From Candidatus Enterousia sp. (lineage in GTDB: Bacteria > Pseudomonadota > Alphaproteobacteria > Rs-D84), in assembly GCA_045614145.1 (NCBI GenBank), contig JAZLCH010000007.1:5806-69805 (forward strand): a stretch of DNA of 64,000 bases, written 5' to 3'. The notes below the pieces were generated by a model. The model did no database searches. It saw only the letters and a list, made by a program, of their open reading frames with translations, and was not told the origin of the DNA. Each line of letters opens with the position of its first letter. The stretch's first letter is position 1. Positions 7,775 through 45,370 of this stretch are shown one piece after another. Both the position numbers and the translations under genes were made by a program.

Positions 7775-9349
7775 ATGGGCGATTTAATTTTTATTCTTTG
7801 CTTAAGAAATAATTCTTATATACTGTGGGGCATGAGATGTTTGTCAGCTTTCTTTGTAATCTTGCTGTCTGTTATTCATGCTGCATGGTCGGGTGTGATT
7901 GGTGGTGATGCATTTGTTTCCGCGGATTTTGTTATTGAAAACGGTGATTTTTATATGCCCGATTCATTACATGTTTCTGGGGTGGTGAAAATAGAAAATA
8001 ATGGGATTTTGAATACTGATGTTTTTGTGAATGATGGTGCAATATTGTTTATAGAAAATCATTCTGGTGTAAATTCTGTATTTGATTTGGGGGATGGTGC
8101 ACAGGTGGTTCAGCTGATTTCAGATGCAGATGATATGAACCCAATTAACTTTAACGTTCCGTATTCTGTGTTGGTTGATGCGGCCAATATGTTGGCGTTG
8201 ACAGATGTAATAAATTTTGCAAATGGGGCAGATAAAATTATTCTGGATGATTCTGTTCTGGACATCAATGGAATCGCAGCCGGCAGTGTGAATAACATTG
8301 AACTGCGTGGCGATGTTTTCTTGGTTGTAGATAGCGTTGATGATTTATCTGATGTGCCATTTATATCAGGTGTGTCTGGCGCGGGAAGGGTACATGTCAT
8401 TTCACCGCAATTAAATCCTTTGTTTACGGATGTTGCGCGATTACGTGGTGGTGATTTGTATCTGGAACGCGTTCGTGTTCAGGATTACGAAAAGGTTTTT
8501 AATAACGATATGGGGCGTTATTTGAACGCATTACGATTAAAAAATAAAAATGATAAATTACTGTATGCGTTGGATTCTGCCAAAGATATCGATTCTTTCT
8601 ATAGTGTGTTAAGGCACAGTGTGCGTTTGAACAATAAAATGTTGGCGCGACCACTTAGAATTTTAAATGCATTTAATCGCTTTGAATCTGATGGTGTGAC
8701 ATCTGCGGATGTGTGGGGTGTAATGTCAGATGAATTCTATGCTTATGGTATAGGTGCGGGTGTGCGCGAAAATATAATGTCAAATTTGAATGTTGGAATT
8801 GAATTTGCTATTGGTAAAGTGAATTATGATGGTGATTATGATGTTTATGCGGGTGATTTGTTTAGTGCAGACCTGTCTGCACTGTGGAGTCTGAATGATA
8901 GTATAGCGGTTCGCGGAATTGCAGGTGTCTTGTACCAGAATACAGATGTTGGCGATGTGTTTTATGGGAATCATATTTATGAAAATCCAGATGTGATGAT
9001 GTGGGATTTAAAGGCAGATGTCGGTTATAAGTTACTTCTTGCCGATTCGTTTTATTTGGATGCTTATACAGGGCTAAATTTTAATGGTTATAGTGTGACG
9101 GGGTTTGTTGATAATGATTTTGATTTGTATTCAGGTGTAAATCTGGGGTATGAATTTGATGCAGTTGGTATAAGATATGATTGCCACATTGGCGCAAATG
9201 TGAATGCGGATTCAGATATTGGTGTGCATGGCAGCATAGGTTTTATGTCTGATATGGATATGGTTGGTGGTAACGTGAATTTTACTGCAATTCATATGTT
9301 TGATGTTATGACATACAAACTATCACTGGGTGTGCGTTTTTTATTCTAG
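7775..9349 (+). CDS. Autotransporter-like outer membrane protein (type V secretion); likely true start at 7832 (MRCLSAFF...)
   Basis: A signal peptide at the internal Met, a beta-rich passenger region, and a C-terminal beta-barrel ending ...LSLGVRFLF. Confidence 0.55.
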   Translation: MGDLIFILCLRNNSYILWGMRCLSAFFVILLSVIHAAWSGVIGGDAFVSADFVIENGDFYMPDSLHVSGVVKIENNGILNTDVFVNDGAILFIENHSGVNSVFDLGDGAQVVQLISDADDMNPINFNVPYSVLVDAANMLALTDVINFANGADKIILDDSVLDINGIAAGSVNNIELRGDVFLVVDSVDDLSDVPFISGVSGAGRVHVISPQLNPLFTDVARLRGGDLYLERVRVQDYEKVFNNDMGRYLNALRLKNKNDKLLYALDSAKDIDSFYSVLRHSVRLNNKMLARPLRILNAFNRFESDGVTSADVWGVMSDEFYAYGIGAGVRENIMSNLNVGIEFAIGKVNYDGDYDVYAGDLFSADLSALWSLNDSIAVRGIAGVLYQNTDVGDVFYGNHIYENPDVMMWDLKADVGYKLLLADSFYLDAYTGLNFNGYSVTGFVDNDFDLYSGVNLGYEFDAVGIRYDCHIGANVNADSDIGVHGSIGFMSDMDMVGGNVNFTAIHMFDVMTYKLSLGVRFLF

Positions 9350-20803: not shown

Positions 20804-20979
20804 GTTCTTTGTCTCCTGGGGGGTAATTCTGGGCATTAGTATAACATCTTTTTGCGATTCGCGCGATTTTATCTTTTGCAGATTGATTTATGTGTGTTTT
20901 AGGTCTTGCACAGATTCGGCCAAATTGTTATAATATATTACAAAGCAAGGGAAGTTTTATAAGGGAAAGGAAGGTTCTT

Positions 20980-21918
20980 ATGTTCCGTAAGGTGTTGATT
21001 TTTGCTATGTTTGCAACGGCGGCAGGCTATTGCTTTGCGTCGGAATTGCCCCAGGTTATAACGTCAGAAGTTTTTTATGAACAAGACAGGTATGTTGATG
21101 GTTCAGATTATGAACAGGTTGACGTGATGCAGGTCGAGGTGCCGGCGTGGCCCTTGGCAGGCAGTGATGCGGATGTCGAAGTTTCGTGCGAACATGGGGC
21201 GTGTAATAAAAAAAAGCAGGATGAAAATATTCGTATAGTCTCAAAGATTGGGGCGGATTTAGTCGTGGAAAATAATTTTAATCTGGGGGCACGTGGTTCG
21301 TTTGCTGGTTGGTCTGGTGGCGCAAATATGTTGCACGGTAATCAGGTTCCGGTTGGCTTTGATGATGAATGCAATAATAATTCAGAAATGCCATTGCTGC
21401 ATCGCGAGGTTTTAGAGGATGATGGTGGTAATGTGTTGGCTGTGTCGCGCAGTGGTCGCAAGAATTGCGGTAAATATGCCAATAATTATGAGGGCTTTGC
21501 TTTGCGTAACGGTATGCGGGTTGATGCAAAAACGGCAGACGGTAAAAGAATTGTGACCAAAGAAGATGGAACAAGTGTTGTAGAAGAATTTGTAGAAGAA
21601 TCTGAAACGGAAATTTTGGTCGATGCGTCTGCAGATGCCGAAGCGCCACAGATTGTGAAAGACCAGGTTCGTTCTTGGGTTGTGGCAAATGGTCAGACGT
21701 TGCGCGAAGTGCTGCAATCGTGGTGTGACAAAGAAGGTTGGGATTTGGTGTGGACAACCCCGCGTGAGTATCCGATTGAGGCCAGTGCTGTCTTTAAGGG
21801 GCGCTTTGTCGATGTGGCGTCGGCGTTGGTTCGTAATTTTGGGCGTGCGACACCAATCCCGTATGCGAAGTTCTATAAGGGAAATCGTGTGTTGGTGATT
21901 TCTGCTTCGCAGGAATAG
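20980..21918 (+). CDS. Secreted protein with a TcpQ/BfpG-like C-terminal domain (type IVb pilus secretin accessory protein-like)
   Basis: Signal peptide. The C-terminus WVVANGQTLREVLQSWCDKEGWDLVW...FKGRFVDVASALVRNFG resembles the TcpQ domain. It immediately precedes a lipoprotein secretin, as tcpQ precedes tcpC and bfpG precedes bfpB. Confidence 0.45.
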   Translation: MFRKVLIFAMFATAAGYCFASELPQVITSEVFYEQDRYVDGSDYEQVDVMQVEVPAWPLAGSDADVEVSCEHGACNKKKQDENIRIVSKIGADLVVENNFNLGARGSFAGWSGGANMLHGNQVPVGFDDECNNNSEMPLLHREVLEDDGGNVLAVSRSGRKNCGKYANNYEGFALRNGMRVDAKTADGKRIVTKEDGTSVVEEFVEESETEILVDASADAEAPQIVKDQVRSWVVANGQTLREVLQSWCDKEGWDLVWTTPREYPIEASAVFKGRFVDVASALVRNFGRATPIPYAKFYKGNRVLVISASQE

Positions 21919-21951
21919 TTTAATATACAGATGTCGTAGGAGAATATAAAT

Positions 21952-23580
21952 ATGATTAAGCCAATGAAATTTTTGATTTTGTCTGTGCTGGTGTTGGCAA
22001 CTGTTACAGGGTGTGCTAAGCGCGAATCGGCCAAGGTTGCGGCATCTGTTGACCAGGATTTTATTAATGCGTACGATGCGTTTGAAATGGCAAAGAATCC
22101 GCGTGCTAAGGTGGCTAGTGGTGATACTGTTTCTATGTCTGAAGGGGTTTGGTTGGGTAATAAATCTGTTGCATTAGAGCATAGAAATAAATTGCCGTCT
22201 AAATTTGAAACGGATATGGGTGTGACTATTTTATTGGATGAGCCTGTGGCGTTGCAGGTGTTGGCAAATGATGTTTATTCTGTGACAGGAATTCCGGTTA
22301 AAATTGATGGTCAAGTGTCAGGGGAAAAATTAAAAAAACAGGTTAATGTTGCCTATACGGGACGTTTGTCGGGTTTGCTGAATCAGGTTGCGACAGATTT
22401 GGATTTGTTGTGGTATTATGACAATAATTCAATTGTTTTCTATGAAACAGAAACGAAAACGTTTTCGTTATATGCACTGGGGACTGAGGTTGCGTATCAG
22501 ACGTCTGTGTCAACGGATAATTCAAATGAGGTGTCTTTGGAATCAACGTTGAAGGAGTGGGATGAAGTTGAAAAAGCGATTTCTTCAATTATTGGTAAGG
22601 CGGAAAATGCGGACTTTACCGTGTCGCGCAGTTTGGGAACAATTACGGTGACTGCATCACCATCTGTGTTAGCGCGCGTTAGTGAATATATTGAACGTCA
22701 GAATAAGCGTTTGAGCCAGCTGGTTACAATCGACGTTAAGGTTTTGCAGGTCACGATTTCTAATAATTCGGCATTTGGTCTGAATTTGGCGGCGGCAATT
22801 AATTCTACGTCGGGGTTGAATATTGTTGCAAATCCAAAAAATAATCTGGCATCGACCGAGGCCAGTTCTATGAATATTGCGGTTCTGTCAAATACAGTAT
22901 CTGCATTGACGGGTGCGACGCACATGGAAAATGGTTCGTTGGTAGATGGTGCGTATACAAATGATCAAATTATGAATGGGTCTTTGTCGGGTGCCGCAGG
23001 CAGTAATGCATTAATTGAGGCCTTGGCAAAGCAGGGCAAGGTTTCTTTGGTGACGAATGTTGGTGTGACGACACGTTCAAATCGTGTTGCACCCGTCAGC
23101 AATACCCGTACAACAGGATATATTAAACGTTTTGAATCACGCAACTTTACAACCGTTGAATCCAGTACAGTTGATCAGGATGATTTAGAGACAGGATTTA
23201 CAATGCAGTTATTGCCAAATGTGTTAGAAAATGGGAAAATTTTGTTGCTGTTCCGTATGTCTGTGCGTGAATTGCTGCGTATGTCAACCCAGACAATTGG
23301 CGAAGTGACACTGCAGTTGCCAGAGGTGGAAGAACGCAGCTTTATGCAAGAAGTTATTATGGAATCGGGTCAGATGTTGGTTGTTTCTGGTTTTGAAAAG
23401 CAGACAAACCAAGATACGCGTTATGGATTGGGTGATCCGGACTTTATGGCGCTGTCTGGTTCGCGTGAAACCCAGGCAACGCGTGAAGTATTGGTCGTTA
23501 TCCTGACGCCACAGGTTCTGATTAGCCCAATGGATATGGAACGCAGTATTCAGCAGCATTGGGGCGCGCCACTGAATTAG
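21952..23580 (+). CDS. Outer-membrane lipoprotein secretin (BfpB/TcpC/PilN type IVb-pilus secretin family)
   Basis: Lipobox VTGC. A secretin-N-like segment (TITVTASPSVLARVSEYIERQNKRLSQLVTIDVKVLQV). A C-terminal secretin domain ending ...VLVVILTPQVLI. 542 aa, close to BfpB in size. Confidence 0.7.
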   Translation: MIKPMKFLILSVLVLATVTGCAKRESAKVAASVDQDFINAYDAFEMAKNPRAKVASGDTVSMSEGVWLGNKSVALEHRNKLPSKFETDMGVTILLDEPVALQVLANDVYSVTGIPVKIDGQVSGEKLKKQVNVAYTGRLSGLLNQVATDLDLLWYYDNNSIVFYETETKTFSLYALGTEVAYQTSVSTDNSNEVSLESTLKEWDEVEKAISSIIGKAENADFTVSRSLGTITVTASPSVLARVSEYIERQNKRLSQLVTIDVKVLQVTISNNSAFGLNLAAAINSTSGLNIVANPKNNLASTEASSMNIAVLSNTVSALTGATHMENGSLVDGAYTNDQIMNGSLSGAAGSNALIEALAKQGKVSLVTNVGVTTRSNRVAPVSNTRTTGYIKRFESRNFTTVESSTVDQDDLETGFTMQLLPNVLENGKILLLFRMSVRELLRMSTQTIGEVTLQLPEVEERSFMQEVIMESGQMLVVSGFEKQTNQDTRYGLGDPDFMALSGSRETQATREVLVVILTPQVLISPMDMERSIQQHWGAPLN

Positions 23581-23730
23581 GTGCTGTATTGATTTAGGTT
23601 TGAAACGGACATCTGGGGGCGGTATATGCATCTTGGGTGTCCGTTTTTTTGTGGCTGGATTGCCGGGGATGATTTATTTGTTAAGTGTTGTAATGATATG
23701 TTTTGGCTTTTGTCTGTGGTTTTTTTGTGG

Positions 23731-23736
23731 TATAAT
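23731..23736 (+). promoter_or_regulatory. Extended -10 element (TGgTATAAT) upstream of the outer membrane protein gene
   Basis: gTGgTATAAT lies 22 nt before the RBS AAAAGGAG. Confidence 0.4.
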
Positions 23737-23758
23737 TTTACGTAAAAGGAGATTAATT

Positions 23759-24976
23759 ATGAAAAACACATTGTTTGGTCTTATGGGGGTGTTGTCTGTG
23801 TTAGCGGTCTTGGATGCAAATGCGGCAACAAATTTTGGTGCGCGTTCGGCATCCAGTGCAGATTTGTCAGGTGCGCCGGCGGTACGTACGCGTGAAAAGG
23901 TGAATTATCAGAAATATCAGACGCGCACAACGAAAAAAACCTATGAAACAAAAGATGCGGCAGATTTGTACTATACAAAACCGGCAAATCGCAGTGCGCT
24001 GTATAAACAGTATGAGGGGGCGTCTTCATCTGCAGCATCTGCGGTCAAGACAACAAAGCGCACAACGCGTTCTGAAAAGGTTGTTAATAAGTTGTCACGT
24101 AAATATTTTATAGCCCATCCGTTCTATCAGCCTTTGGGTGGTGTGTTTGGTTCGGTGACCGATTTGGGTTATACGTCCAGTGGATATGATTTTGATATTG
24201 CAACCACAACACCAATTGGTGGTAACTGGGATATGAGCCGTTTTACCATCAAAGAAGATCTTAGTTATGGTATCACAGATACAATTGCAATGATGGCTAT
24301 GTTGCAATTTGATATGGATGAATATAAATTCGAATGGGACGATAATTCGTCATCTGATAAAATGGATGATAATGGTTTAAATATGTTTGGTATTGGTGGT
24401 CAATGGCGTTTCAAGGATAATGAAAAATGGATTGGTATGGCATCCGCATACTACCAGCATCAGAAAGATATTTCTGATAACTTCTTGTTAGAGGTTAAGG
24501 CAGGATACAAAATTGCATCGTCAACTGTTTATGGGCTGATGCGTGGATGGTATCTGGCATTGGATGGAAATTCATATGGTAATGGGGTAGAAGGTAAGGA
24601 TGAAGCTGGAAATTACCAGGTTTTGTATATGCCGTACCAAATTGGTGAAGATTCAGCAATCTATTTCGAAGGTGGAATGGGTGTGTTCAGCGTGCTGAAC
24701 AAAGATTGGACGCTGAATCTGGAGGGTGTATTTGGACACTATGATTGGCACAATTCTGCAACGATCAAGGGGGCCATTGGGTGGCAGCCAAATGATTGGT
24801 TCGCGTTGAATCTGTATGCAAAAACAGTGTTCTGGGACAGTGCAGATGGCAAGAAATTGGACACATTGTATTTGTCGCCAGATTTGGGGTATGACCAATG
24901 GACAAATATTGGCAAAGCAAAGTTAGATAATTATGCGGAAACGTCAATCGGCCTGCAGGTTATGTTCCAGTTCTAG
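23759..24976 (+). CDS. Outer-membrane beta-barrel protein, about 405 aa
   Basis: Signal peptide MKNTLFGLMGVLSVLAVLDANA, alternating beta strands, C-terminal ...GLQVMFQF. Confidence 0.6.
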   Translation: MKNTLFGLMGVLSVLAVLDANAATNFGARSASSADLSGAPAVRTREKVNYQKYQTRTTKKTYETKDAADLYYTKPANRSALYKQYEGASSSAASAVKTTKRTTRSEKVVNKLSRKYFIAHPFYQPLGGVFGSVTDLGYTSSGYDFDIATTTPIGGNWDMSRFTIKEDLSYGITDTIAMMAMLQFDMDEYKFEWDDNSSSDKMDDNGLNMFGIGGQWRFKDNEKWIGMASAYYQHQKDISDNFLLEVKAGYKIASSTVYGLMRGWYLALDGNSYGNGVEGKDEAGNYQVLYMPYQIGEDSAIYFEGGMGVFSVLNKDWTLNLEGVFGHYDWHNSATIKGAIGWQPNDWFALNLYAKTVFWDSADGKKLDTLYLSPDLGYDQWTNIGKAKLDNYAETSIGLQVMFQF

Positions 24977-25050: not shown

Positions 25051-25782
25051 ATGCGTAAATTTTTGTCAGTATTTATGTTGTCTGTTTGTGTGTTGGTGCC
25101 AACGTTGTCACATGCAAATGATTTGTCCCAGGATACGTCTGATCCATTGTTTATGTTGCAGACCGAAGGGATTTTGTCGCGTTCGTCTTTGACGTATTGG
25201 GACCATATCTTGCGTGCAGGACAGGCAATGTCGTATGGTATGAACAATCGTTTAACAATTGGGGCGGATGTTCATTATCAGCATGATTTTAATGGCCCAG
25301 AAGACGGCTTTTCTGCGATTGATTTGGGGGCGACGTATCGTATGGGGGCGGCAGATGATAACGATTCCCACATAATATCGGATGTCTTGTTTGGTTTTAA
25401 ATTTGGTGGCAGTTCGCGTGTGCGCACACCAGATTATGCGGATTCAACGTATTATGCGGGTTTGCGTTTTGGGCGTCAGTATGCAGGAATGACACTGGCA
25501 GCGACAATTAAGTCTACATGGGTGTTTGATGATGTGCGTGGTGTTGCATTCTTGGATTTTACGCCAGAGGCATACTTTCGTATCGCACCTGATTTTCGTT
25601 TGGGAACAGGGCTGACCGTGCGCAAGGCAACCCATAAAATCGATGGAATGGATTTTGACCAAGAATGGCTGCATACGAAGCTGGTACGTCAATTTGGCTA
25701 TACCCAATATATTGGGCGTGTTGATTATGAATTTGAATCTGATGATTTTCAGGTTGGCGCCCAGATTAACGTGCTGTTTTAA
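25051..25782 (+). CDS. Outer-membrane beta-barrel protein, 243 aa
   Basis: Signal peptide, C-terminal ...GAQINVLF. Confidence 0.6.
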   Translation: MRKFLSVFMLSVCVLVPTLSHANDLSQDTSDPLFMLQTEGILSRSSLTYWDHILRAGQAMSYGMNNRLTIGADVHYQHDFNGPEDGFSAIDLGATYRMGAADDNDSHIISDVLFGFKFGGSSRVRTPDYADSTYYAGLRFGRQYAGMTLAATIKSTWVFDDVRGVAFLDFTPEAYFRIAPDFRLGTGLTVRKATHKIDGMDFDQEWLHTKLVRQFGYTQYIGRVDYEFESDDFQVGAQINVLF

Positions 25783-27084: not shown

Positions 27085-27981
27085 ATGAAAAAGTTCATTT
27101 CTGTTGTTTTATCTGTTTTGTGTATTGTTCCTGCTGTCGCGGCAACAGGCCGGGGACGCGCAGGAAATACACTGTCTGCACAGATGGATGCGGCGCAGGA
27201 ACGCGCGGGCGTTGTTTCGAAAAATCAGATCTCCGCCATGGCGGGATTGGCGCCTGAGACCGTTGTTGTTCAAAAATCCAGCCTCAAGGTTGATAATGAT
27301 GTTACTGATGATATCACGACAGATGCGATGATTGCGCCAGATGTAACAATTTCTGGTGGTGCACTAAAGGATATGCGTGAAAAGGAAAAAGGTGCCTGTA
27401 TCGCTAATAATATTGGTGTGGGGAATACTTTTGTTTGGGCGTCGCGTTACAGCAATCTGAACAGTTATTCAACAATGGTGGAAGATATTGAAAATCCAGA
27501 AAATAATACATGCTTTGTTAAGGTTGAATTAAAATCAAACGATTCGAAAATTGGTGTGTCGGATGTGCCTGTGAAATATTATGAATGGGGACAGAATATT
27601 ACATGTGGCGCGTGGGCTGATTATGATGTGCTGAAAAAACGTATTTTAGATGCTAAAAAAACGGCACGAACATGGGCAACTGTTGCTGGCGCAGTTGGTG
27701 GTGCAGGTGTCGGTGTTGGTGCGATGGAAGCGTTCGGTAACAGATTGATTGGTGGTGATGTAGAAGGACAAAAGCATCTGGAACGAAATAATCCAACCGC
27801 TTTGTTGCGGTCACAGCTGGCGGTGTTAAAACAAGATAATCAGGCAGAATATAAAAAGTTTATTAGTAATTTAAGGGTGCTGAAGTTGGAATGTGCCAAG
27901 GAACATGTTTTGAATTCAGATGATATTGAGCTGAAGGCGATGTGTGAAGACTTTAAGCCTGTATTTGATTTGGCTGTGTAA
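27085..27981 (+). CDS. Secreted hypothetical protein, 298 aa
   Basis: Signal peptide MKKFISVVLSVLCIVPAVAA. No recognisable domain. Own terminator. Confidence 0.5.
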   Translation: MKKFISVVLSVLCIVPAVAATGRGRAGNTLSAQMDAAQERAGVVSKNQISAMAGLAPETVVVQKSSLKVDNDVTDDITTDAMIAPDVTISGGALKDMREKEKGACIANNIGVGNTFVWASRYSNLNSYSTMVEDIENPENNTCFVKVELKSNDSKIGVSDVPVKYYEWGQNITCGAWADYDVLKKRILDAKKTARTWATVAGAVGGAGVGVGAMEAFGNRLIGGDVEGQKHLERNNPTALLRSQLAVLKQDNQAEYKKFISNLRVLKLECAKEHVLNSDDIELKAMCEDFKPVFDLAV

Positions 27982-29062: not shown

Positions 29063-29460
29063 GAAAAATGTTGTCTATACACTGTATATACAAATGGCAG
29101 AAAACAGGCGGAAAAACGAATCGTTGTCAAAAAATAAAAGTGTTTTTTTGAGGGAAGATTTGCTTGTAAACCGGAAATAATGTTTTAACTTGTTTGTCGT
29201 ATCCAAAACGAGAAGAAGGTAATCAAAAAACAAGATTGGTTTTATTAATGGCATTAATTGTAACAGCCGGAAAATAAAATTAATCTATAACATTTAAAGA
29301 ACGCGAGAGAGTTTTAGTAGGACAATATAAAATACCATGAAAGTGGCGTTTTATGTAGGTGACTTTTACAACCTGGATTCGAAGAAATAAGTCTGGTTGT
29401 AGAATATAAGGTCTGGGATGGATAACTCTTTTGAAAAAAAAGAAAAAGGGAGAAAAGGGC

Positions 29461-30741
29461 ATGCAGACAATGGCGGCAAAATCACAAATGACAAACTTGG
29501 AAACAATCAAGGGGGCCATTGCCGCAAAAATTGATGCAGCATCTTTTACTTCTTGGATTGCACCTTTGTCTTTTGATGTTGTTGATGGTGTTTTGGTTTT
29601 GGGCGCACAGAATCAGTTCTCGGCAGATTTTATTAACAGTGTTCATTTCGGTGCAATTTCATCGGTAGCGGCAGAATTTGGCTTGACAGCATCAGTTGTA
29701 GTTCGTGCGGCAAAACAAACAGTCGCGCCAGTCGCAAATGATAATCGTGCCCAGGCATATGCGCCAGCGGCACCGGTTGCATCTAATACGCTTGCGTTTG
29801 ATTCTTTTGTTTGTTCAGATGAAAATTTGTTTGTTGTTTCTGCGGGTAAAAAAGTCGCAGCGGGGTCGGTTCCTTTTTCTCCACTGTTTATTTACGGGCC
29901 AGCGGGGGCGGGTAAATCTTTGTTGACAGAATGCATCGCAGGCGCATCAACTGCAAAAGTTGTTAAAATGAGTGGCGCACAGTTTGTTTCTGAATTCACA
30001 CGCAGCCTGAAAGAACATAATGTTTTCGCGTTCAAGGATTTTTGTCGTAATTGTGATACTTTTATTTTAGACGATGTTCAGGCATTGTCTGGCAAGAAAG
30101 CGTCAACCGAAGAATTTATGCAGTTGGTTGTTGATTTGCGCGGGGCGGGTAAAAATGTTGTACTGACTGCAAATGCGATGCCAGGTAATCTGACAGGTTT
30201 TGACCGTCATGCACAGTCTTTGATGGCGTCTGGTTTGGTTGCGGATGTTGTGGCACCAAATGCACATGTAAAATCTGTTATGCTGATGCGCGCAGGTGTG
30301 AAATCTGATGTTGCGAATACACTGGCGGGGCGTATCGCAAATGATGGTCACATGATTGCAGGTGTTGCAACAAAAATCAAAGCGTATACAGATTTGATGG
30401 GGGCGTGTGTTGATATGTCGGTTGCAACGCGTCTGTTGGCGGATACGCTGCAGGTGGTTAAGACACCGGTTGCAATGGTTAAGATGATGTGTGAAAAATT
30501 GGGTGTGTCTTATGATGCTGTTTGTGGGGCGGGGCGCAGCCGCAGCCTGGTGTTGGCGCGTCAGATTATGATGAGCGTTTTAAAAGAAGCGACACAGTTG
30601 TCTTTGTCTGAAATTGGTAATTTTGTTGGTGGTCGTGATCATGCCACGGTTTTGTACGCGATTAAGCAGATTGAAAAGAATGTTGCAGGGGATTTGGTAT
30701 TGGCAGCACAGATTCAACAGTTGGTTGAAGAATGCAAATAA
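29461..30741 (+). CDS. dnaA: Chromosomal replication initiator DnaA (divergent)
   Basis: Walker A IYGPAGAGKSLL, the box VII region, and C-terminal domain IV GRDHATVLYAIKQIEK. The ORF-table start at 29431 (MKKKKKGEKG) lies in the A-rich RBS region; the start at 29461 is preferred. Confidence 0.75.
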   Translation: MQTMAAKSQMTNLETIKGAIAAKIDAASFTSWIAPLSFDVVDGVLVLGAQNQFSADFINSVHFGAISSVAAEFGLTASVVVRAAKQTVAPVANDNRAQAYAPAAPVASNTLAFDSFVCSDENLFVVSAGKKVAAGSVPFSPLFIYGPAGAGKSLLTECIAGASTAKVVKMSGAQFVSEFTRSLKEHNVFAFKDFCRNCDTFILDDVQALSGKKASTEEFMQLVVDLRGAGKNVVLTANAMPGNLTGFDRHAQSLMASGLVADVVAPNAHVKSVMLMRAGVKSDVANTLAGRIANDGHMIAGVATKIKAYTDLMGACVDMSVATRLLADTLQVVKTPVAMVKMMCEKLGVSYDAVCGAGRSRSLVLARQIMMSVLKEATQLSLSEIGNFVGGRDHATVLYAIKQIEKNVAGDLVLAAQIQQLVEECK

Positions 30742-30808
30742 TTTATTGATATCAGCAGAAGATGTTAGTGAAATATTATGTTTTTTATGGTATAATTAGC
30801 ATCAGAAA

Positions 30809-33079
30809 ATGAAAAAAATGTTATCATTTTTTTTCAGTGTGATTTTAATTGCGCCCTGGGCATTTGGTGCCAGTGGCGCTGTTTCGCGTGTTATTCCAAC
30901 CAGTGTAGCTGATGCCAAAAATCAAGAGATGTCAGGTGGTGGGATTGTTGCGCGTACTGCGACGCGTGCGATATCAGACGCGGGTGAAAAAAGTAGGGGT
31001 GTTGAAAAAACAGATAATGTTGCAGCGCGCAGCACGGTGTCGCGTCTGGTCACCGGTGTGCCAGCGGTTAAACAGGAAAAAGATGTCAAGGTTCAGGCGC
31101 GTGGGGCGGTTGCTTCGCGTTCTGTAAAATCTGGAACGGATGCGCGCAGCGGTTTGGATGCAGCAGTTAATACGGTTGGACGCAATAAGCGTGTCGCAGA
31201 CGCCAGTATAAACAGTAATCCTGCGGTTCGCAGGTTGGGGGTGACATTACGCCCCAGCACGGCCGAGGTTGGTGGACGTGCGACGATTGGTGATACAGGT
31301 GTGCAGACGGGGTCAAATATAGACGAACAATTACGCAATGTGCATTCGCGTGCGGCAAAAAAAGAAATTACAGCCGAAGGTATTGCGGAGGCTAAGACAC
31401 GATTGGAACAGACAGCAGAATTGAATAAGTCGTGTCAGGAACAGTATAATGATTGTATGGATCAATTCTGTGCGGTGATAGATTCAAACCAGGGACGGTG
31501 TTCGTGTTCGTCTAATTTATCCAGGTATACTAAGGTTGAAGAAGCTGTAAAGGATGCGAATAATCAGCTGAACGAGGTTGCGCAGCGTATACGTTATGTT
31601 GGTTTGTCTGCAGACGAGATTCGCGCAATCTTGACCGAGACCGAGGCAGAAGAGGTATTGTCGGGTACAACGGATAATTCTGAAAACAGAAATATGTTGG
31701 AACAGATTGAAGAATTAATTCGTGACCCGGTTTCAAATACGGCGACATTTTCTGGGACAGATGATTTCGGACTGAATATGGATTTGGATTTTTCATCAGA
31801 AAGTGGTGATTTGTTTAATCTGGACTTTTTGAATTTTGGTAATACAGGCAGTTTTTCAAATTTGCGTGGGGCGGAATTGTATCGGGCGGCCAAGAATCGC
31901 TGTAATACGGTTTTAAATCAGTGCAAAGAGGCAGGATCGACAACGTCACAGATTACGGGAAATTATGATTTGGCGATTGATAAAGATTGTATCGCATATG
32001 AAAAAGGATTAAAGAAGATGAATGAAACACTGGTCGCAAATGTGGGCAGTGCGAATCGTATGCTGCAAAAGGCGCGATTGGCCGTGTTGCAGAATAAAAA
32101 CATGTATGATGCCAAGGGGTGTATTGGTGCGTTGGAGGCATGTATGAAGGACGAGATGGTTTGTGGCGAAAAGTACTATAAGTGTATTGACCCAACCAAA
32201 ATATATATTGATGAAAATGCCGAAGTTGTGTTGGGACAACCGGTGTCGCAGATTCAGAATTTTATGACATCTTATAATAATGCAGCGATTAATAAGGACT
32301 TTTTGAAAGGTGCGTATGAGACAATAACTATAAATACGACAAATTGTACGGGGGAAAATGGTCCCAAATGTGTTGCCAAATATTTGTTACAAAAAATTGG
32401 AACCAAGCAAAAGGTGACGGATGAAGGGTTGTGTCGCGCGGTTTTGGACAAGTGTCAGGCGTATACATATAATTCCGAAGGTGTTTATCAACCATATAAT
32501 GATGTTGTTGTGAATTATATTCAGCGTGCAATGGTGAACATTCGTGCGGCCCAAAGTATGGCAATTTCAGAATATGCATCAACGTGTATCGTTGATATCG
32601 CAGATTGTTATAATTCACAGATAACCCAGGTTAATTCATGGGCCTCAGGTGCAAATGTGGGCAGTGTTCAAAAGGTTCTGGCCGGGGCATGTCGTAATGT
32701 GGCACTGACCTGTGCATATGCAGTGTTCAAGGATGATACGGATAGTTGTCCATCGAAAGATCCTGCGACTTGTATTGCTTCGATTTCAGAAATGTTCTAT
32801 CAATCGTTGTTATGTCCGGAAAATTCAATGTATGAAGCTAGCGGGAAGGATGATGAAAAAACTGATAGCGAGAAAGCAAAGTATGTTAATTTGCATTGTA
32901 AATGTAATGAGGGGTATCAGGTATTTGGTGGTGCGTGTTTGGTTAACTGTGGTGGTTTAGAAAACCGTGACAGTTATGGCGTTTGTCAGTGTGTAGAGAA
33001 TGCTTCTTTGAAGAACGGTGTGTGTTATTGTGATGAAGGATATGAAAAAAAAGATAACACCTGTGAAAAGAAAAAATAA
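30809..33079 (+). CDS. Large secreted Cys-rich protein with an EGF-like C-terminal region, 756 aa
   Basis: Signal peptide. The N-terminal region has repeated A-x-R-S/T motifs. The C-terminus is CKCNEGYQVFGGACLVNC...CQCVENASLKNGVCYCDEGYEKKDNTCEKK. Own terminator. Confidence 0.55.
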   Translation: MKKMLSFFFSVILIAPWAFGASGAVSRVIPTSVADAKNQEMSGGGIVARTATRAISDAGEKSRGVEKTDNVAARSTVSRLVTGVPAVKQEKDVKVQARGAVASRSVKSGTDARSGLDAAVNTVGRNKRVADASINSNPAVRRLGVTLRPSTAEVGGRATIGDTGVQTGSNIDEQLRNVHSRAAKKEITAEGIAEAKTRLEQTAELNKSCQEQYNDCMDQFCAVIDSNQGRCSCSSNLSRYTKVEEAVKDANNQLNEVAQRIRYVGLSADEIRAILTETEAEEVLSGTTDNSENRNMLEQIEELIRDPVSNTATFSGTDDFGLNMDLDFSSESGDLFNLDFLNFGNTGSFSNLRGAELYRAAKNRCNTVLNQCKEAGSTTSQITGNYDLAIDKDCIAYEKGLKKMNETLVANVGSANRMLQKARLAVLQNKNMYDAKGCIGALEACMKDEMVCGEKYYKCIDPTKIYIDENAEVVLGQPVSQIQNFMTSYNNAAINKDFLKGAYETITINTTNCTGENGPKCVAKYLLQKIGTKQKVTDEGLCRAVLDKCQAYTYNSEGVYQPYNDVVVNYIQRAMVNIRAAQSMAISEYASTCIVDIADCYNSQITQVNSWASGANVGSVQKVLAGACRNVALTCAYAVFKDDTDSCPSKDPATCIASISEMFYQSLLCPENSMYEASGKDDEKTDSEKAKYVNLHCKCNEGYQVFGGACLVNCGGLENRDSYGVCQCVENASLKNGVCYCDEGYEKKDNTCEKKK

Positions 33080-33106
33080 AACCGGCGATTGCCGGTTTTT
33101 ATCTTT
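33080..33106. terminator. Bidirectional terminator
   Basis: ACCGGCGATTGCCGGT hairpin with T-runs on both strands. Confidence 0.7.
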
Positions 33107-33114
33107 TAATTTTT

Positions 33115-35094
33115 TTATACGAACAAGTCTTTTACAAATTGGGCGTGTTCTGTTATGAACTTGAATCGAAATTCTGGTTTTTTTCCCATCAGTTCAGAAA
33201 CAATCGTACGTGTTTTTTCCGTGTCTTCGGCCCCTTCTTCGGTGCGGGGGGGCAGGTCAACACGTATCAAACGACGCGTTTTTGGGGACATGGTTGTTTC
33301 TTTTAGTTGATTGGGCATCATTTCACCAAGTCCCTTGAATCGTGATATTTCAACGCGTTTGTTTTTATATTTGTTTGCCTTTAAATTTTCCAATTCTTCG
33401 TCCGTATCAACGTAAATCGATTCGGTGCCACATGTTAATTTATACAGCGGAGGACATGATAAATATAGGTGGCCACCATAGATTAATTGAGGCATGAATT
33501 GATAAAAGAACGCCATCAGTAATGATGCAATATGGCTGCCGTCAACGTCGGCATCGGTCATGATAATTATTTTTTCATAACGCAATTTGTCTTGGTTCCA
33601 ATCTTTGGCAGTGCCGGCCCCGATAATGTCTATAAGGTCATTTAATTCTTTGTTCGCACCGAATCGTTCGTCGGAATTTGATATAACATTTAAAACCTTG
33701 CCACGCAGGGGCATAATTGCCTGGGTCGCACGATCGCGTGCCTGTTTTGCGGTGCCGCCAGCTGATTCCCCCTCAACAATAAATAATTCTGTGCCGGCGA
33801 TACCATGTTTGGAGCAATCCGCCAATTTTGCGGGCATGCGAATGCGTTTCGTTGGTGTTTTGCGCGCAACATCTTTGACCTGTTTTGTCTTAATACGCGC
33901 ATTTGCCAAATTGATTACAAATTCCAGTAATGCGTTTGCAGTCTTTGGGTCAGATGCCAAAAACATTTCCCATGGGTCGCGCAGTGCGTTTTCTGTATAG
34001 CGGGCAATTTCTGGGTTGGACAGTTTTTCTTTGGTCTGGCCCAAAAATTGTGGCGTTTTGTAAAACACAGATACGATTGCAGCAACGGAATCAAATACAT
34101 CTTCGCCGATGATTGATGCGGCGGCCTTGTTATTTGTTTTTTCGCCGTATGCTTTAAGCCCCTTGGTAATTGCGGATTTAAAGCCCGTTTCGTGTGTGCC
34201 ACCGTCAATTGTTGCAATTGTATTACAGTATGATGAAAAGAATCCATCATCAGATGCCGCGCCATTTTCGTCTGTTAAAAATGTCAGCGCCCATTCAACG
34301 CGCCCGCAGTCGTCAGGGAAATCAACGCTGCCACTGAAAATGCGTGGCAGGATGCGCGGTTTTGAATCTGTTTTCTCTGCCAGGAAGTCTGCAACACCAT
34401 TTGGATAATAAAATGTTGTTGTGGCAGGGATGTTCATGTCTTCGGTTAGTAATTCGGGATTGCAATGCCAATCAATTTTTACACCGCGGGACAGGAACGC
34501 CTTGGCACGGGCCATGCGGTAAATCTTGATTGGTTTAAAGGTCGCGTTCGTACCGAATATGTCATCATCAATTGTAAAGCGAATCTTGGTGCCGTGGTTT
34601 TTTGTTGCATCCCCGCGGGTCATGGGGGACGTGGTCAGACCACGTGAAAACGTCTGGTGCCAGTTATAGCCATCACGTGCAATATCAACAACCATTTCTG
34701 ATGACAGGGCATTCACAACCGCCGAGCCAACGCCGTGCAGACCGCCACTGGTCTTATAAACATTATTGTTAAATTTACCGCCAGAATGAAGGGTGGTTAA
34801 AATAACCTCTAGGGCGGATTTGCCAGGGTATTTGGGGTGTTCATCAACGGGGATGCCACGTCCGTCGTCTGCGATTTCAATTGTTTTAGAATCAATTAAA
34901 TTTACGGTGATTTTCTTGGCAAAACCAGCGACGGCTTCGTCAATAGAATTGTCCATTATTTCAATTGGCAGGTGGTGCCATGCCTTTTCATCTGTGCCGC
35001 CGATGTACATTCCAGGGCGCAGACGTACGGGTTCCAATCCTTCCAACACCTGAATGTCGGACGCGTCATATGTGTTTGTCTTTTTCTCTGTCAT
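33115..35094 (-). CDS. parE: DNA topoisomerase IV subunit B (type IIA topoisomerase B subunit)
   Basis: GHKL ATPase N-terminus, TOPRIM domain, EGDSAGG. At 659 aa it lacks the GyrB insert, which favours ParE. Confidence 0.8.
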   Translation of the reverse strand: MTEKKTNTYDASDIQVLEGLEPVRLRPGMYIGGTDEKAWHHLPIEIMDNSIDEAVAGFAKKITVNLIDSKTIEIADDGRGIPVDEHPKYPGKSALEVILTTLHSGGKFNNNVYKTSGGLHGVGSAVVNALSSEMVVDIARDGYNWHQTFSRGLTTSPMTRGDATKNHGTKIRFTIDDDIFGTNATFKPIKIYRMARAKAFLSRGVKIDWHCNPELLTEDMNIPATTTFYYPNGVADFLAEKTDSKPRILPRIFSGSVDFPDDCGRVEWALTFLTDENGAASDDGFFSSYCNTIATIDGGTHETGFKSAITKGLKAYGEKTNNKAAASIIGEDVFDSVAAIVSVFYKTPQFLGQTKEKLSNPEIARYTENALRDPWEMFLASDPKTANALLEFVINLANARIKTKQVKDVARKTPTKRIRMPAKLADCSKHGIAGTELFIVEGESAGGTAKQARDRATQAIMPLRGKVLNVISNSDERFGANKELNDLIDIIGAGTAKDWNQDKLRYEKIIIMTDADVDGSHIASLLMAFFYQFMPQLIYGGHLYLSCPPLYKLTCGTESIYVDTDEELENLKANKYKNKRVEISRFKGLGEMMPNQLKETTMSPKTRRLIRVDLPPRTEEGAEDTEKTRTIVSELMGKKPEFRFKFITEHAQFVKDLFV

Positions 35095-38533: not shown

Positions 38534-38998
38534 ATGAATCAGGAATCAGGTCGTTCAATGATTGAAATGCTGGGGGTGTTGGCAATTATGGGGGTTATTA
38601 CCGTTGGGGCAATTGGTATGATTTCAACCGCGATGCGTACGCAAAAATTGACAACTGTTAACGACCAGGTGGTTCAGATGGTTACGATGGTTCGTAACAT
38701 TCATGGTGAATATGATGATTTTTCAAATATGAATGGAACAACTATTTTTGGCGCAATCGGTATGAGTAATCAGAACCCGTATGGTGGGACGTATACTTTG
38801 TCTGTTAATCCGTCAAACCCACGTCAGTTTATTGTTGGGATAAATGGTTTGGGGCAATCTGAGTGCGAATCGCTGTTAGCCAAGGCGTGGTCTGATTCAG
38901 TTGGGTATCAGTTGTCGAATGGTAAACAGGGGGGGGCAACCGGTGATTGTAAATCAGCGGGGGCAAATAATTCTGTTCAGATTGTTTATGGTGAATAA
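38534..38998 (+). CDS. Type IV pilin (prepilin with G/-1, E/+5, C-terminal disulfide pair)
   Basis: MNQESG|RSMIEMLGVLAIMGVITVGAIG class-III signal. A C-terminal C...C pair. 154 aa. Confidence 0.65.
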   Translation: MNQESGRSMIEMLGVLAIMGVITVGAIGMISTAMRTQKLTTVNDQVVQMVTMVRNIHGEYDDFSNMNGTTIFGAIGMSNQNPYGGTYTLSVNPSNPRQFIVGINGLGQSECESLLAKAWSDSVGYQLSNGKQGGATGDCKSAGANNSVQIVYGE

Positions 38999-43565: not shown

Positions 43566-44435
43566 TTAACCCAGCATTTTTGCAACTTCATCAGCCAGGT
43601 TGTCTTCGCGTTTTTCAATACCTTCGCCCAGTACGAAATATGCAAATCCAGCCAATTTGCCGTTTGCGTCTGCGATAACTTCGCGTACAGTCTTGGAAGG
43701 GTCCATAACGAATGGCTGTTCTTCCAGAACTGATTCGCCATAGTATTTTTTTATACGGCCTTCGACCATCTTTTCAACGATGTTTTCTGGTTTGCCAGCA
43801 GTTGCACCCGATTCGATAAATACTTTCTTTTCGCGTTCAACAGCCACCGGATCAACGTCGGCAATTGTCATGAATTCTGGTTTGTTTGCAGCAATGTGCA
43901 TTGCAATTTTTGAACCGATTTCATCGATTTTTGCATCGTCGCCGTTAATTGCAACTGCAACACCAATCTGACCCATGCCTGGGACCAATGCATTGTGGAT
44001 GTATGTAAAGATTTTGTCGCCTTCTACTTTGGCAATGCGGCGCAAATTCATATTTTCGCCGATTGTTGAAATTGTTGCGGCAATGTCGTCTTTTACAGCG
44101 GCCATTGTTGCGTCAAAATCACCTTTTAATTCGGCGGCTTTGTTTGCAACGTCTGCAACCAATTTCTGGAATTTTTCATTCTTTGCAACAAAGTCTGTTT
44201 CTGCGTTCAATTCAACAACGCAACCCATGTTGTCGCATTTTACAACAGTTACCAAGCCTGATGCAGCAACACGACCGGCCTTGGATGCAGCTTTTACGAT
44301 ACCTTTCTGGCGCAACCAATCGGCAGCAGCCTGGATATCGCCATCGTTTTCCATCAAGGCTTTTTTACAATCCATCATACCTGCAGATGTTTTTTCACGC
44401 AGTTCTTGGATTAATTTTGCTGTAATTTCTGCCAT
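43566..44435 (-). CDS. tsf: Elongation factor Ts
   Basis: MAEITAKLIQELREKTSAGMMDCKKAL, 289 aa. Confidence 0.9.
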   Translation of the reverse strand: MAEITAKLIQELREKTSAGMMDCKKALMENDGDIQAAADWLRQKGIVKAASKAGRVAASGLVTVVKCDNMGCVVELNAETDFVAKNEKFQKLVADVANKAAELKGDFDATMAAVKDDIAATISTIGENMNLRRIAKVEGDKIFTYIHNALVPGMGQIGVAVAINGDDAKIDEIGSKIAMHIAANKPEFMTIADVDPVAVEREKKVFIESGATAGKPENIVEKMVEGRIKKYYGESVLEEQPFVMDPSKTVREVIADANGKLAGFAYFVLGEGIEKREDNLADEVAKMLG

Positions 44436-44518
44436 GTGTAATCTCCCATAATGTGTTTTAATAAAAGAATTCTTGTGGCACGGGGAAAATCCCCGTGCAT
44501 TTTATATTGCAGATAATA

Positions 44519-45370
44519 TTATTTGTCTGCTTTGTCAGCCTGTTTGCCGCGACGTTCGGCACGTGCTTCGGATGTCTTGGATTTAATCTTGGCTTCTTTT
44601 TCCTTGATTTCATCTTCGAATTCATCGGCTGCATCTGCCTTGATGTCTGCTTCGGCTTTCTTACCAGCGGCGCCGCCCAGACGTTTTTCAATACCAGATA
44701 AGATTGCGTCTACGAATAAATCGCAATATAACTGGGTCGCGCGTGCAGCGTCATCGTTGCCAGGGACCGGGTAGTCAACCATTTCTGGATTCGCGTTTGT
44801 GTCGCAAATCGCAATTGTTGGAATGTCCAGGTTTTTAGCTTCGCGGACAGCGTTCATTTCGCGTGGAACGTCAATAACGACCATTGCCTGTGGTGTGCCG
44901 TGCATTTCCATGATACCACCGAAAATGTCGCGCAATTTTTCAACTTCTTTGGTCATAACACCAACTTCTTTCTTGGTCAGACCCAATTTGTCGGCGTTTG
45001 CAATGTCTGCTTCCATTTTCTTTAGGCGACGGATAGACTGAGAAACCGTAGACCAGTTTGTCATCATACCACCCAACCAACGGTTGTTTACATAGTATTG
45101 TCCGCAACGTTCAGCCGCATCTTTTACGATGTCTTTGGCCTGATGTTTCGTTGCAACAAACAATATTTTGCCACCGGCGGCTGCAATCGCTTCTAATGCG
45201 ACCAAGGAACGGTGCAACAATGGTGCAGTTTTGTTCAAATTGATGATATGGATTTTGTCTTTTACGCCATAAACATATGGTGTCATCAACGGATTCCAGC
45301 GACGTGTGTGGTGACCAAAATGCACACCAGCTTCCATCAGCTGTTTCATTGTAAATGTTGGCAATGCCAT
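44519..45370 (-). CDS. rpsB: 30S ribosomal protein S2
   Basis: MKQLMEAGVHFGHHTRRWNP motif. A Lys/Glu-rich C-terminal tail. 283 aa. Confidence 0.9.
   Translation of the reverse strand: MALPTFTMKQLMEAGVHFGHHTRRWNPLMTPYVYGVKDKIHIINLNKTAPLLHRSLVALEAIAAAGGKILFVATKHQAKDIVKDAAERCGQYYVNNRWLGGMMTNWSTVSQSIRRLKKMEADIANADKLGLTKKEVGVMTKEVEKLRDIFGGIMEMHGTPQAMVVIDVPREMNAVREAKNLDIPTIAICDTNANPEMVDYPVPGNDDAARATQLYCDLFVDAILSGIEKRLGGAAGKKAEADIKADAADEFEDEIKEKEAKIKSKTSEARAERRGKQADKADK

Follow-up and report, generated by a model that had tools for sequence, protein, structure and literature searches.

Modular surface fibers and adhesins, such as the mosaic adhesive fibers of Bdellovibrio and the trimeric autotransporter adhesins, combine a conserved anchor or stalk with swappable distal tips, and the Helicobacter cysteine-rich proteins (Hcp) are Sel1-like repeat proteins with one disulfide per pair of helices. 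In Vibrio cholerae and enterotoxigenic Escherichia coli, the pilus recognizes exoproteins for export by their disordered mature N-terminus (PMC10120004), and in Alphaproteobacteria a conserved N-terminal alanyl-aspartyl motif is covalently linked to peptidoglycan, for example in the outer-membrane proteins (OMPs) of Brucella (PMC10787603). A protein of 756 amino acids (aa), encoded in a 64,000-nucleotide stretch of contig JAZLCH010000007.1 of Candidatus Enterousia sp. (the window, to which all coordinates given without a locus name refer), is set here beside these systems and beside the epidermal growth factor (EGF) domains, to which its C-terminus was likened in an earlier note made from the sequence of the window. 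By sequence comparison, this protein is a member of a large, undescribed and uncharacterized family from Rs-D84 and Candidatus Enterousia. The preferred interpretation, put forward tentatively, is that it forms a surface stalk that is anchored in the envelope and bears a variable tip for binding, contacting partner cells or host surfaces.

The order Rs-D84, which includes Candidatus Enterousia, is widespread in human, ruminant and bird guts, and its genomes, mostly below 1 Mb and of about 0.75-1.0 Mb in the genus, are devoid of most biosynthetic pathways (lipid included), respiration, flagella and standard transporters; these bacteria have been proposed to be obligate symbionts or parasites of other cells, with hypothetical membrane-bound proteins suggested as possible mediators of the cell interaction (PMC12306168).

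An undescribed protein family

The coding sequence (30809..33079, + strand; ATG start, 756 codons and a TAA stop) is shown by the reading-frame call, by full-length homologues and by purifying selection (core dN/dS of 0.065-0.098) to be a real, constrained gene, and both the open reading frame (ORF) and the signal peptide described in the earlier note are present. The search for orthologues in related symbionts that the note had proposed returned at least 999 bacterial homologues from 5.8 billion proteins, and a scan of GTDB species representatives detected the gene in 272 genomes, the named carriers being Candidatus Enterousia, "uncultured Rickettsiales" and gut metagenome-assembled genomes (MAGs) from ruminants, humans and chickens. 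That the bacterium is host-associated, as had been supposed, agrees with the origin of the homologues in gut MAGs of Candidatus Enterousia and Rs-D84 (PMC12306168). The best 120 homologues align over almost the entire length at 60-94% identity, all come from alphaproteobacterial MAGs and all are named "hypothetical protein". Wherever the organism label of a family member is informative, it is that of a gut MAG of Alphaproteobacteria or Candidatus Enterousia. The window ORF reaches 782 bits against the family profile; among 1.84 billion cluster representatives, an exhaustive profile search yielded 682 matches, 220 of them below 1e-30 and many far longer than 756 aa. The features that define the family (signal peptide, basic S/T/A/R-rich region, the motif C-x6-C-x4-C-x9-C-x-C and 18 core cysteines) are all found in the window protein.

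The claim that the protein has no recognizable bacterial family holds for the curated libraries, although not for the sequence databases, where the homologues mentioned above are found. No curated family was found for the window protein in Pfam, NCBIfam or PDB-sequence searches, in which the best scores were far under the cut-offs; a curated assignment was also tried with the whole protein, the core, the tail and the deep family profile, and was rejected since all remained at noise level. No family recurred among 57 diverse members scanned singly against Pfam, and no curated family, informative annotation or paper describing the family was found. Two names in the databases touch on its taxonomic and functional labeling. 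The assembly of locus L020 (CAVGNU010000001.1), labeled "Bacteroides fragilis", carries a copy of the Candidatus Enterousia type (62% identical) together with a paralogue, and is almost certainly mis-binned or mislabeled; the distant member P0264 (MDR0741188.1) bears the NCBI name "methyl-accepting chemotaxis protein" (MCP), which is probably an artefact of its long helices; no MCP domain was found in any member scanned.

Conservation was evaluated in an alignment of the Candidatus Enterousia clade (A1), a deep alignment of 88 sequences reaching down to 27% identity (A2) and an alignment of the C-terminal repeat (A3). The whole protein evolves fairly fast, being 72% identical between the window and locus L006, where DnaA and ParE are 88% and 98% identical, respectively, and its core is clearly under purifying selection. 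Regional dN/dS values, estimated with dS near saturation, are below 1 everywhere, so that no positive selection was detected.

Predicted helical core and conserved cysteines

The most characteristic part of the protein is a core of about 480 residues (aa 191-670; 31379..32818, + strand), predicted to be alpha-helical and stapled by disulfides, with a mean clade identity of 75% and the low dN/dS values given above. The description of the protein as Cys-rich proved accurate, since it contains 32 cysteines, none of them before residue 209 and many arranged as C-x6-C pairs. The 18 conserved core cysteines (209, 216, 221, 231, 233, 365, 372, 394, 438, 445, 452, 459, 542, 549, 593, 600, 628 and 635), mostly in C-x6-C pairs, vary little or not at all throughout the superfamily, down to 27% identity; the gaps between pairs are irregular, from 22 to 132 residues. 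The number of cysteines in the mature protein is even in 204 of the 237 full-length family members (binomial P=1.4e-31), and the optional cysteines 513 and 521 occur together in 24 sequences, singly in 3 and not at all in 61. The even counts and the coupling of these two positions suggest that cysteines are gained and lost in pairs, which in turn points to disulfide bonding and to maturation outside the cytoplasm. This pattern indicates, indirectly, a disulfide-bonded and extracytoplasmic protein, and together with the signal peptide it supports the earlier proposal of an exported, disulfide-rich product.

The AlphaFold model obtained with the 88-sequence alignment (m65bf3ccdfdc5) reached a mean predicted local distance difference test (pLDDT) score of 81.6 and a predicted template modeling score (pTM) of 0.60, with block means over 10 residues mostly above 90 from around aa 350 to the C-terminus. 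The modeled core is almost wholly alpha-helical and includes two helices of about 50 residues (379-428 and 565-611), while the last 60 residues or so are modeled as stacked short beta-hairpins with pLDDT above 90. Within the core, a conserved acidic/aromatic loop (aa 306-354, ..FGLNMDLDFSSESGDLFNLDFLNFGNTGSFSNLRG; 31724..31870, + strand) retains D, F and L positions and is predicted to be disordered, with pLDDT below 50 at aa 309-335 and 337-340 and climbing towards aa 354. A first AlphaFold run with 38 close homologues gave a poor core (mean pLDDT of 50.7); its Foldseek result was meaningless and is superseded.

Searched with Foldseek, the confident model had no significant neighbor in the PDB (best E of 0.78, with TM below 0.25, to generic long-helix proteins) and no match at E of 0.001 or lower in the viral BFVD library (best E of 0.05); the non-significant matches also include short local ones to giant-virus and adenovirus-fiber proteins, which presumably involve the beta-hairpin tail. 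The family profile retrieved nothing from the PDB sequences either. Within the libraries searched, the model suggests that the core is a fold without a described relative. One likeness is to the Hcp proteins, which are also secreted helical proteins of host-associated bacteria with regularly spaced cysteine pairs stapling helices; however, scans of the window protein and of the 57 diverse members gave no Sel1 or TPR match, the C-x6-C pairs with their irregular gaps of 22-132 residues differ from the 36-residue repeat of Hcp, and Foldseek gave no match to Sel1-like structures.

The variable C-terminal tail

The tail (aa 671-756; 32819..33076, + strand) is Cys-rich and hypervariable, with 34% mean identity, indels and dN/dS of 0.14-0.43, and it carries 1.5 units of a repeat. 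The half-unit C697-x-C699-NEGY-x6-C710-x3-C714 (32897..32950, + strand) is the final hairpin of a partial unit (aa 697-714) and is kept across the Candidatus Enterousia clade, where C699, G702, Y703, C710 and C714 are each at least 90% conserved in A1. It is followed by one complete six-Cys repeat of about 40 aa, C-x11-C-x-C-x10-C-x-C-x2-G-Y-x6-C (aa 714-754; 32948..33070, + strand), defined by its motif and by A3 and predicted as hairpins with pLDDT above 90. Tail units 2 and 3 average only 18% identity in the clade and are missing from many relatives.

Across the family, the N-terminal 650 residues or so are held in common and are followed by complete divergence, with C-terminal extensions from 0 up to about 1,600 aa. 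Members P0165, P0189 and P0241 end directly after the core, P0161 and P0162 bear long extensions with Cys-rich repeats of several types, and P0127, P0128 and P0129 carry Listeria-Bacteroides repeats, a domain typical of cell-surface proteins, in the C-terminal extension. The relative P0126 has six tandem copies of the six-Cys repeat, as defined by a regular expression (e.g., CGALEQLVNGQCVCVANANKDSGKCQCNSGFVKSGNACVP). The same kind of change is visible between close relatives: the gene of L084, the closest one, is 91% identical in DNA overall and about 97-100% across the core, but similarity collapses at aa 671-693 and after aa 715, and units 2-3 are lacking. A stretch of 65 nt that encodes unit 2 (32966..33030, + strand) is, in turn, identical to the L085 orthologue, even though the two genes are just 76% identical overall, the next-longest exact run shared with the L085 gene is 28 nt, and the segment is absent from L084; this stretch is a footprint of recombination or gene conversion. 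The cell-surface type of the domains appended in relatives, together with a tail exchanged as a cassette, argues that the C-terminus is most plausibly exposed and ligand-contacting. No conserved C-terminal sorting signal was found, the C-termini differing even among close homologues, so that any determinant of targeting or anchoring must sit in the N-terminal or core part.

It was the EGF-like part of this tail, the least conserved 8% or so of the protein, on which the earlier note had focused, whereas the defining part is the helical core with its 18 invariant cysteines. The C-terminal string CKCNEGYQVFGGACLVNC...CQCVENASLKNGVCYCDEGYEKKDNTCEKK, which had been read as tandem EGF-like or laminin-type modules, is present, and part of this reading stands. 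The pattern C-x-C-x2-[GP]-[FYW]-x4-8-C, the PROSITE-type pattern of the EGF C-terminal hairpin, matches twice (aa 697-710 and 739-752) against 0.003 matches expected in shuffled tails, it occurs in 126 of 275 family proteins, and beta-hairpins are modeled in the tail. The unit further resembles EGF domains in its length of about 40 aa with six cysteines, in its C-x-C-x2-G-Y-x6-C hairpin, in the predicted two-stranded beta-hairpins and in its occurrence as tandem arrays in extracellular proteins. In contrast, the repeat spacing C-x10/11-C-x-C-x10-C-x-C-x10-C is non-canonical in the first three cysteines, the unit opening with C-x10/11-C-x-C instead of the C-x4-7-C-x4-5-C of EGF, and the module makes up only about 8% of the protein and is dispensable in the family.

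The comparison with EGF, laminin-EGF and TNFR models, which the note had suggested, gave none at threshold: EGF-type Pfam models scored 9.8-16.1 bits on aa 679-756 against cut-offs of 22-33 (Pvs28, 16.1 against 26; EGF_Tme5, 14.9 against 22; cEGF, 12.1 against 26.6; EGF_2, 9.8 against 22.1), with only the C-terminal halves of the models aligned; laminin-EGF and TNFR_c6 were absent from the tail scan even at E of 10 or lower, and no EGF match was found in 12 long-tailed relatives in scans at E of 0.01 and of 0.1 or lower. The repeat profile gave marginal matches to PDB sequences (E of 0.04-1), mainly EGF-type or related small Cys-rich modules (Pvs25/Pfs25, the Cys-rich region of EphA2, EGF2 of factor X, reelin and the TIL-type inhibitor IMPI), whereas others, to a designed helical repeat protein and the IL-2 receptor alpha chain, look spurious. 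In the EGF-type matches, the printed alignments and matched profile positions indicate that the last hairpin alone aligns. "EGF-like" is thus a fair label for the closing hairpin of every unit, although it does not establish the unit as a member of the EGF family, and the module as a whole is best described as a small, swappable appendage.

The possibility that the protein is a eukaryote-like EGF or laminin-EGF protein, acquired from the host or mimicking it and acting as an effector through its EGF modules, is very improbable in light of these results. The two hairpin-pattern matches, the predicted beta-hairpins and the EGF-type character of most marginal profile matches speak for it, but all scores are sub-threshold with half of each model covered, the cysteine spacing is non-canonical, most relatives, among them the closest one, lack the module or have a different one, the base composition is native, and a bacterial, order-specific helical core takes up 92% of the protein. 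Nothing points to a eukaryotic origin; mimicry of eukaryotes was the weakest part of the earlier account and has largely not been borne out.

The N-terminal region

The protein starts with a Sec-type signal peptide (MKKMLSFFFSVILIAPWAFG, followed by AS at the mature end; aa 1-20/22; 30809..30874, + strand), recognized by sequence reading and by alignment with the N-termini of homologues; it has KK in the n-region, a hydrophobic core of 15 residues and A-x-G at -3/-1, is of the Sec/signal peptidase I type with no lipobox Cys, and averages 47% identity in the clade over aa 1-22. A basic low-complexity region rich in Ser, Thr, Ala and Arg follows (aa 23-114; 30875..31150, + strand), with a pI of 10.6, 34% mean identity, dN/dS of 0.40-0.56 and pLDDT of 25-38 as 10-residue block means in the first full-length model. 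The A-x-R-S repeat region described previously corresponds in part to this stretch: over aa 23-190 (pI above 10), the strict motif occurs only twice, while the looser [AST]-R-[AST] is enriched (six occurrences against 1.7 expected, P=0.005), and what is found is a basic S/T/A/R-rich low-complexity composition that recurs in distant family members.

The next segment, GRNKRV..ASINSNPAVRRLGVTLRPSTAEVGGRATIG..TGSN (aa 115-190; 31151..31378, + strand), is conserved (78% mean identity, dN/dS of 0.025-0.097, many invariant residues) and predicted to be disordered, with pLDDT of merely 41-57 over aa 110-189 in the confident model. Its constraint is as tight as that of the core, and such constraint together with modeled disorder is characteristic of segments that fold upon binding to a partner; aa 115-190 are a candidate docking, anchoring or export motif.

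The N-terminus also bears on a different explanation, in which the protein would be a periplasmic structural or tether protein, with its N-terminus fixed to peptidoglycan and its stapled helices serving as a spacer or scaffold in a bacterium without Lpp. Attachment would take place through an N-terminal Ala-Asp joined to the peptidoglycan by L,D-transpeptidases, as in OMPs of Brucella and Agrobacterium, or by binding of the basic region to the wall. The mature protein begins with A-D-G or A-E-V in most family members, Ala-Asp linkage to peptidoglycan is documented in Alphaproteobacteria (PMC10787603), the body with its two long helices is elongated, the family gene often adjoins housekeeping or envelope genes (ompA-like, ompH, lptD), and no export route across the outer membrane has been identified. 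Nevertheless, the window protein has Ala-Ser and not Ala-Asp at its mature N-terminus, in this differing from the peptidoglycan-linked alphaproteobacterial proteins, and a periplasmic strut would hardly be expected to have extensions of up to about 1,600 aa bearing Listeria-Bacteroides and Cys-rich repeats, or a recombining, hypervariable tail. A search of the window for a YkuD-type motif gave none, a weak argument given that 64 kb is a small part of a genome of about 0.75-1.0 Mb (PMC12306168), and the absence of a DsbA-type motif is uninformative for a 64-kb sample. Taken together, a tether function appears unlikely, and a surface-exposed stalk is retained as the preferred interpretation.

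The gene and its expression signals

A promoter-like site, GTGAAA-17-TATAAT with a TG-extended -10 (30768..30796, + strand), is proposed on the basis of its match to the consensus and stops 13 nt 5' of the ATG, which implies a very short leader. The ribosome-binding site that the note had assigned to the gene was not recovered, since no Shine-Dalgarno-like motif lies in the 20 nt 5' of the ATG, whereas such a motif is present in 27 of 41 other window genes. The terminator that it had assigned is there, as a hairpin with a 9-bp stem, AAAACCGGCGATTGCCGGTTTT, and a T-run (33078..33099, both strands); it begins within the stop codon, is kept in L084 and L085, and would act as a bidirectional intrinsic terminator common to the convergent parE-like gene.

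The gene lies, as had been described, between dnaA and parE: its upstream neighbor is dnaA (29431-30741, Pfam) and its downstream neighbor encodes a 659-aa topoisomerase subunit of the GyrB/ParE type (33115-35094, - strand; Pfam domains of the L084 orthologue). The view that it is not on an island is likewise upheld, its GC content being 0.433 against 0.435+-0.034 for the window genes and its GC3 0.389 against 0.419+-0.049, and no relatives were found in phage and plasmid collections. The test of base composition that had been suggested for horizontal transfer therefore gave native values, and a transferred or mobile origin of the gene was rejected. No second family member was found in the window by profile, regular expression or tblastn.

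Two further features of this region may be mentioned. A 173-aa ORF (L005 8266-8787, - strand) separates the family gene from parE in close relatives; in the window it is absent and 35 bp lie between the two stop codons, a small local gain or loss of a gene at the variable 3' end. Besides, GC skew is positive in every 1-kb bin of the window except 44001-45000 (-0.065) and the cumulative skew climbs almost monotonically, so that, by this measure, there is no switch near dnaA and the replication origin is not beside it.

Genomic context and paralogues

The order plsY, a secreted 298-aa ORF, dprA, dnaA, the 756-aa gene, parE and dnaJ is found only in the closest relatives (L004-L007 and L084/L085, in part L062), and none of the neighboring genes of the window occurs in 78 of the 83 loci checked. 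Elsewhere, the gene is most often followed immediately by an RNase T-like gene (in 39 of about 80 loci with assignable neighbors) and then by UvrD, and rplU-rpmA are directly upstream in some loci, such as L001. The neighbors across 84 loci are housekeeping genes (RNase T-like, UvrD, rplU-rpmA, dnaA, parE), and no partner or secretion gene is consistently adjacent, which suggests a stand-alone transcription unit and weighs against the preferred interpretation.

In 25 of the 84 loci, a distant paralogous gene lies 1-3 kb upstream or in tandem (e.g., L001 4951-7020; L027 3696-5912). The paralogue is about 25% identical in the best local alignments and has in common the signal peptide, the R/S/T-rich region and two Cys clusters, one of them CxxxYxxCMDxxC..RCxC. 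At least 1,203 members, none of them annotated, make up its family, and one contig (that of P0037/P0377) carries members of both families. Among the nearby window genes, 27085-27981 (+ strand) encodes the exported 298-aa protein, which has no family match and is 50-73% identical where DnaA is 79-94%; its paralogy with the 756-aa protein was considered and discarded, the signal peptides alone resembling each other. Three other ORFs without a Pfam family (23600-24976, 25051-25782 and 7775-9349, all + strand) end in the aromatic C-termini ..VMFQF, ..INVLF and ..GVRFLF and are probably lineage-specific beta-barrel outer-membrane proteins. A block of 3-4 genes (about 429, 479, 404 and 437 aa, no Pfam families) recurs a few kb from the family gene in L001 (13135-18268, - strand) and some 36 further loci, at least one of its products being membrane-protein-like.

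The window also contains a gene for a TcpQ-domain protein (20890-21918, + strand), followed by a lipoprotein-type secretin (21952-23580). Outer-membrane machinery of this type IVb pilus or type II secretion system (T2SS) kind, encoded here in a genome of under 1 Mb, might be used for taking up DNA, for adhesion or for the export of proteins. A gene for a type IV pilin-like protein is present as well (38534-38998, + strand; MNQESGRS, then MIEMLGVLAIMG...). These genes (20890-23580 and 38534-38998) raise another explanation, according to which the protein would be an exoprotein or effector released through a secretin of this kind, recognized by its disordered N-terminus and acting away from the cell, on the membrane of a partner or in the scavenging of lipids or nutrients. 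The proximity of a pilin homologue, about 1.5 kb upstream of the family gene in five loci (L002, L003, L026, L035 and L052; about 3 distinct genomes), the strong constraint on the disordered N-terminal motif and the deficiency of Rs-D84 genomes in lipid and other biosynthesis (PMC12306168) agree with it, as does the precedent of TcpF and CofJ, with which the window protein would share Sec export, periplasmic folding and a disordered mature N-terminus, with TcpQ and secretin genes in the same region (PMC10120004). On the other hand, the gene is outside the pilus operon, with TcpQ and secretin 7-10 kb off, the linkage to pilus genes is weak and inconsistent, the disordered region of about 170 aa is far longer than the short export signals of TcpF and CofJ (PMC10120004), the protein resembles neither TcpF nor CofJ, nor any toxin or lipid-binding fold, in sequence or fold, and the pilus genes may serve DNA uptake, dprA being next door. 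Release by this route is therefore considered unlikely.

Proposed role and significance

In the preferred interpretation of an anchored surface stalk, the 756-aa protein would be exported by Sec with removal of the signal peptide and would fold in an oxidizing compartment into an elongated alpha-helical body locked by nine family-conserved disulfides. The basic, disordered N-terminus, chiefly aa 115-190, would dock to an envelope component or act as a signal for export or anchoring, and the C-terminus would project a small, fast-changing module of Cys-rich beta-hairpins, here 1.5 units of the 40-aa repeat and, in relatives, nothing, tandem six-Cys arrays, other Cys-rich repeats or Listeria-Bacteroides repeats. 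This tip would be the ligand-contacting end, by which the protein would bring these auxotrophic bacteria, with their genomes below 1 Mb, into contact with the partner cells or host surfaces that they may depend on. That the protein sits at the surface, that its N-terminus anchors it and that it serves adhesion are inferred from the features described above. Several observations weigh against this role, in addition to the lack of a conserved neighbor: every family member comes from uncultured MAGs and is known from sequence data alone, no way for it to cross the outer membrane was found, no adhesin domain was recognized in Pfam scans of the window protein and its tail, and dN/dS of the tail is below 1, so that diversifying selection is not demonstrated.

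The comparison with modular surface fibers and adhesins, made by description only, rests on a conserved body, a C-terminus hypervariable in length and domains, recombination at the tip and multiple paralogues per genome. The family differs from them in having no beta-barrel, no trimeric coiled-coil signature among those tested and no known anchor domain, and in its helical body without a structural neighbor; no Pfam domains of autotransporter, two-partner, sortase or type IX secretion system (T9SS) type were found in the window protein or in 57 members. The family and its predicted core, a candidate new fold, have no relative in the libraries searched; exported, disulfide-rich, modular envelope proteins with variable tips in host-associated bacteria have precedent.

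A more far-reaching possibility, at present rather improbable, is that the family represents a new fold class of component of a cell-contact organelle, a disulfide-stapled stalk with at least two ancient paralogous families, ancestral to and widespread in Rs-D84, in which recombining cassettes of EGF-like and other tips set the specificity for partner or host. If this were true, the tips would be comparable to the host-range cassettes of phage tail fibers or to the antigenic variation of protozoan surface antigens. The core, a helical fold predicted with confidence, with nine putative conserved disulfides and without a neighbor in the PDB, is of interest for structural genomics. The family also matters for annotation: thousands of its database entries now stand as "hypothetical protein", and at least one is mislabeled as a chemotaxis receptor. 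In the tiny genome of Candidatus Enterousia, an exported, strongly constrained and duplicated protein with a recombining tip is a prime candidate for the interface with the partner, and, should the cassette model hold, the identity of the ligand would show what this bacterium lives on.

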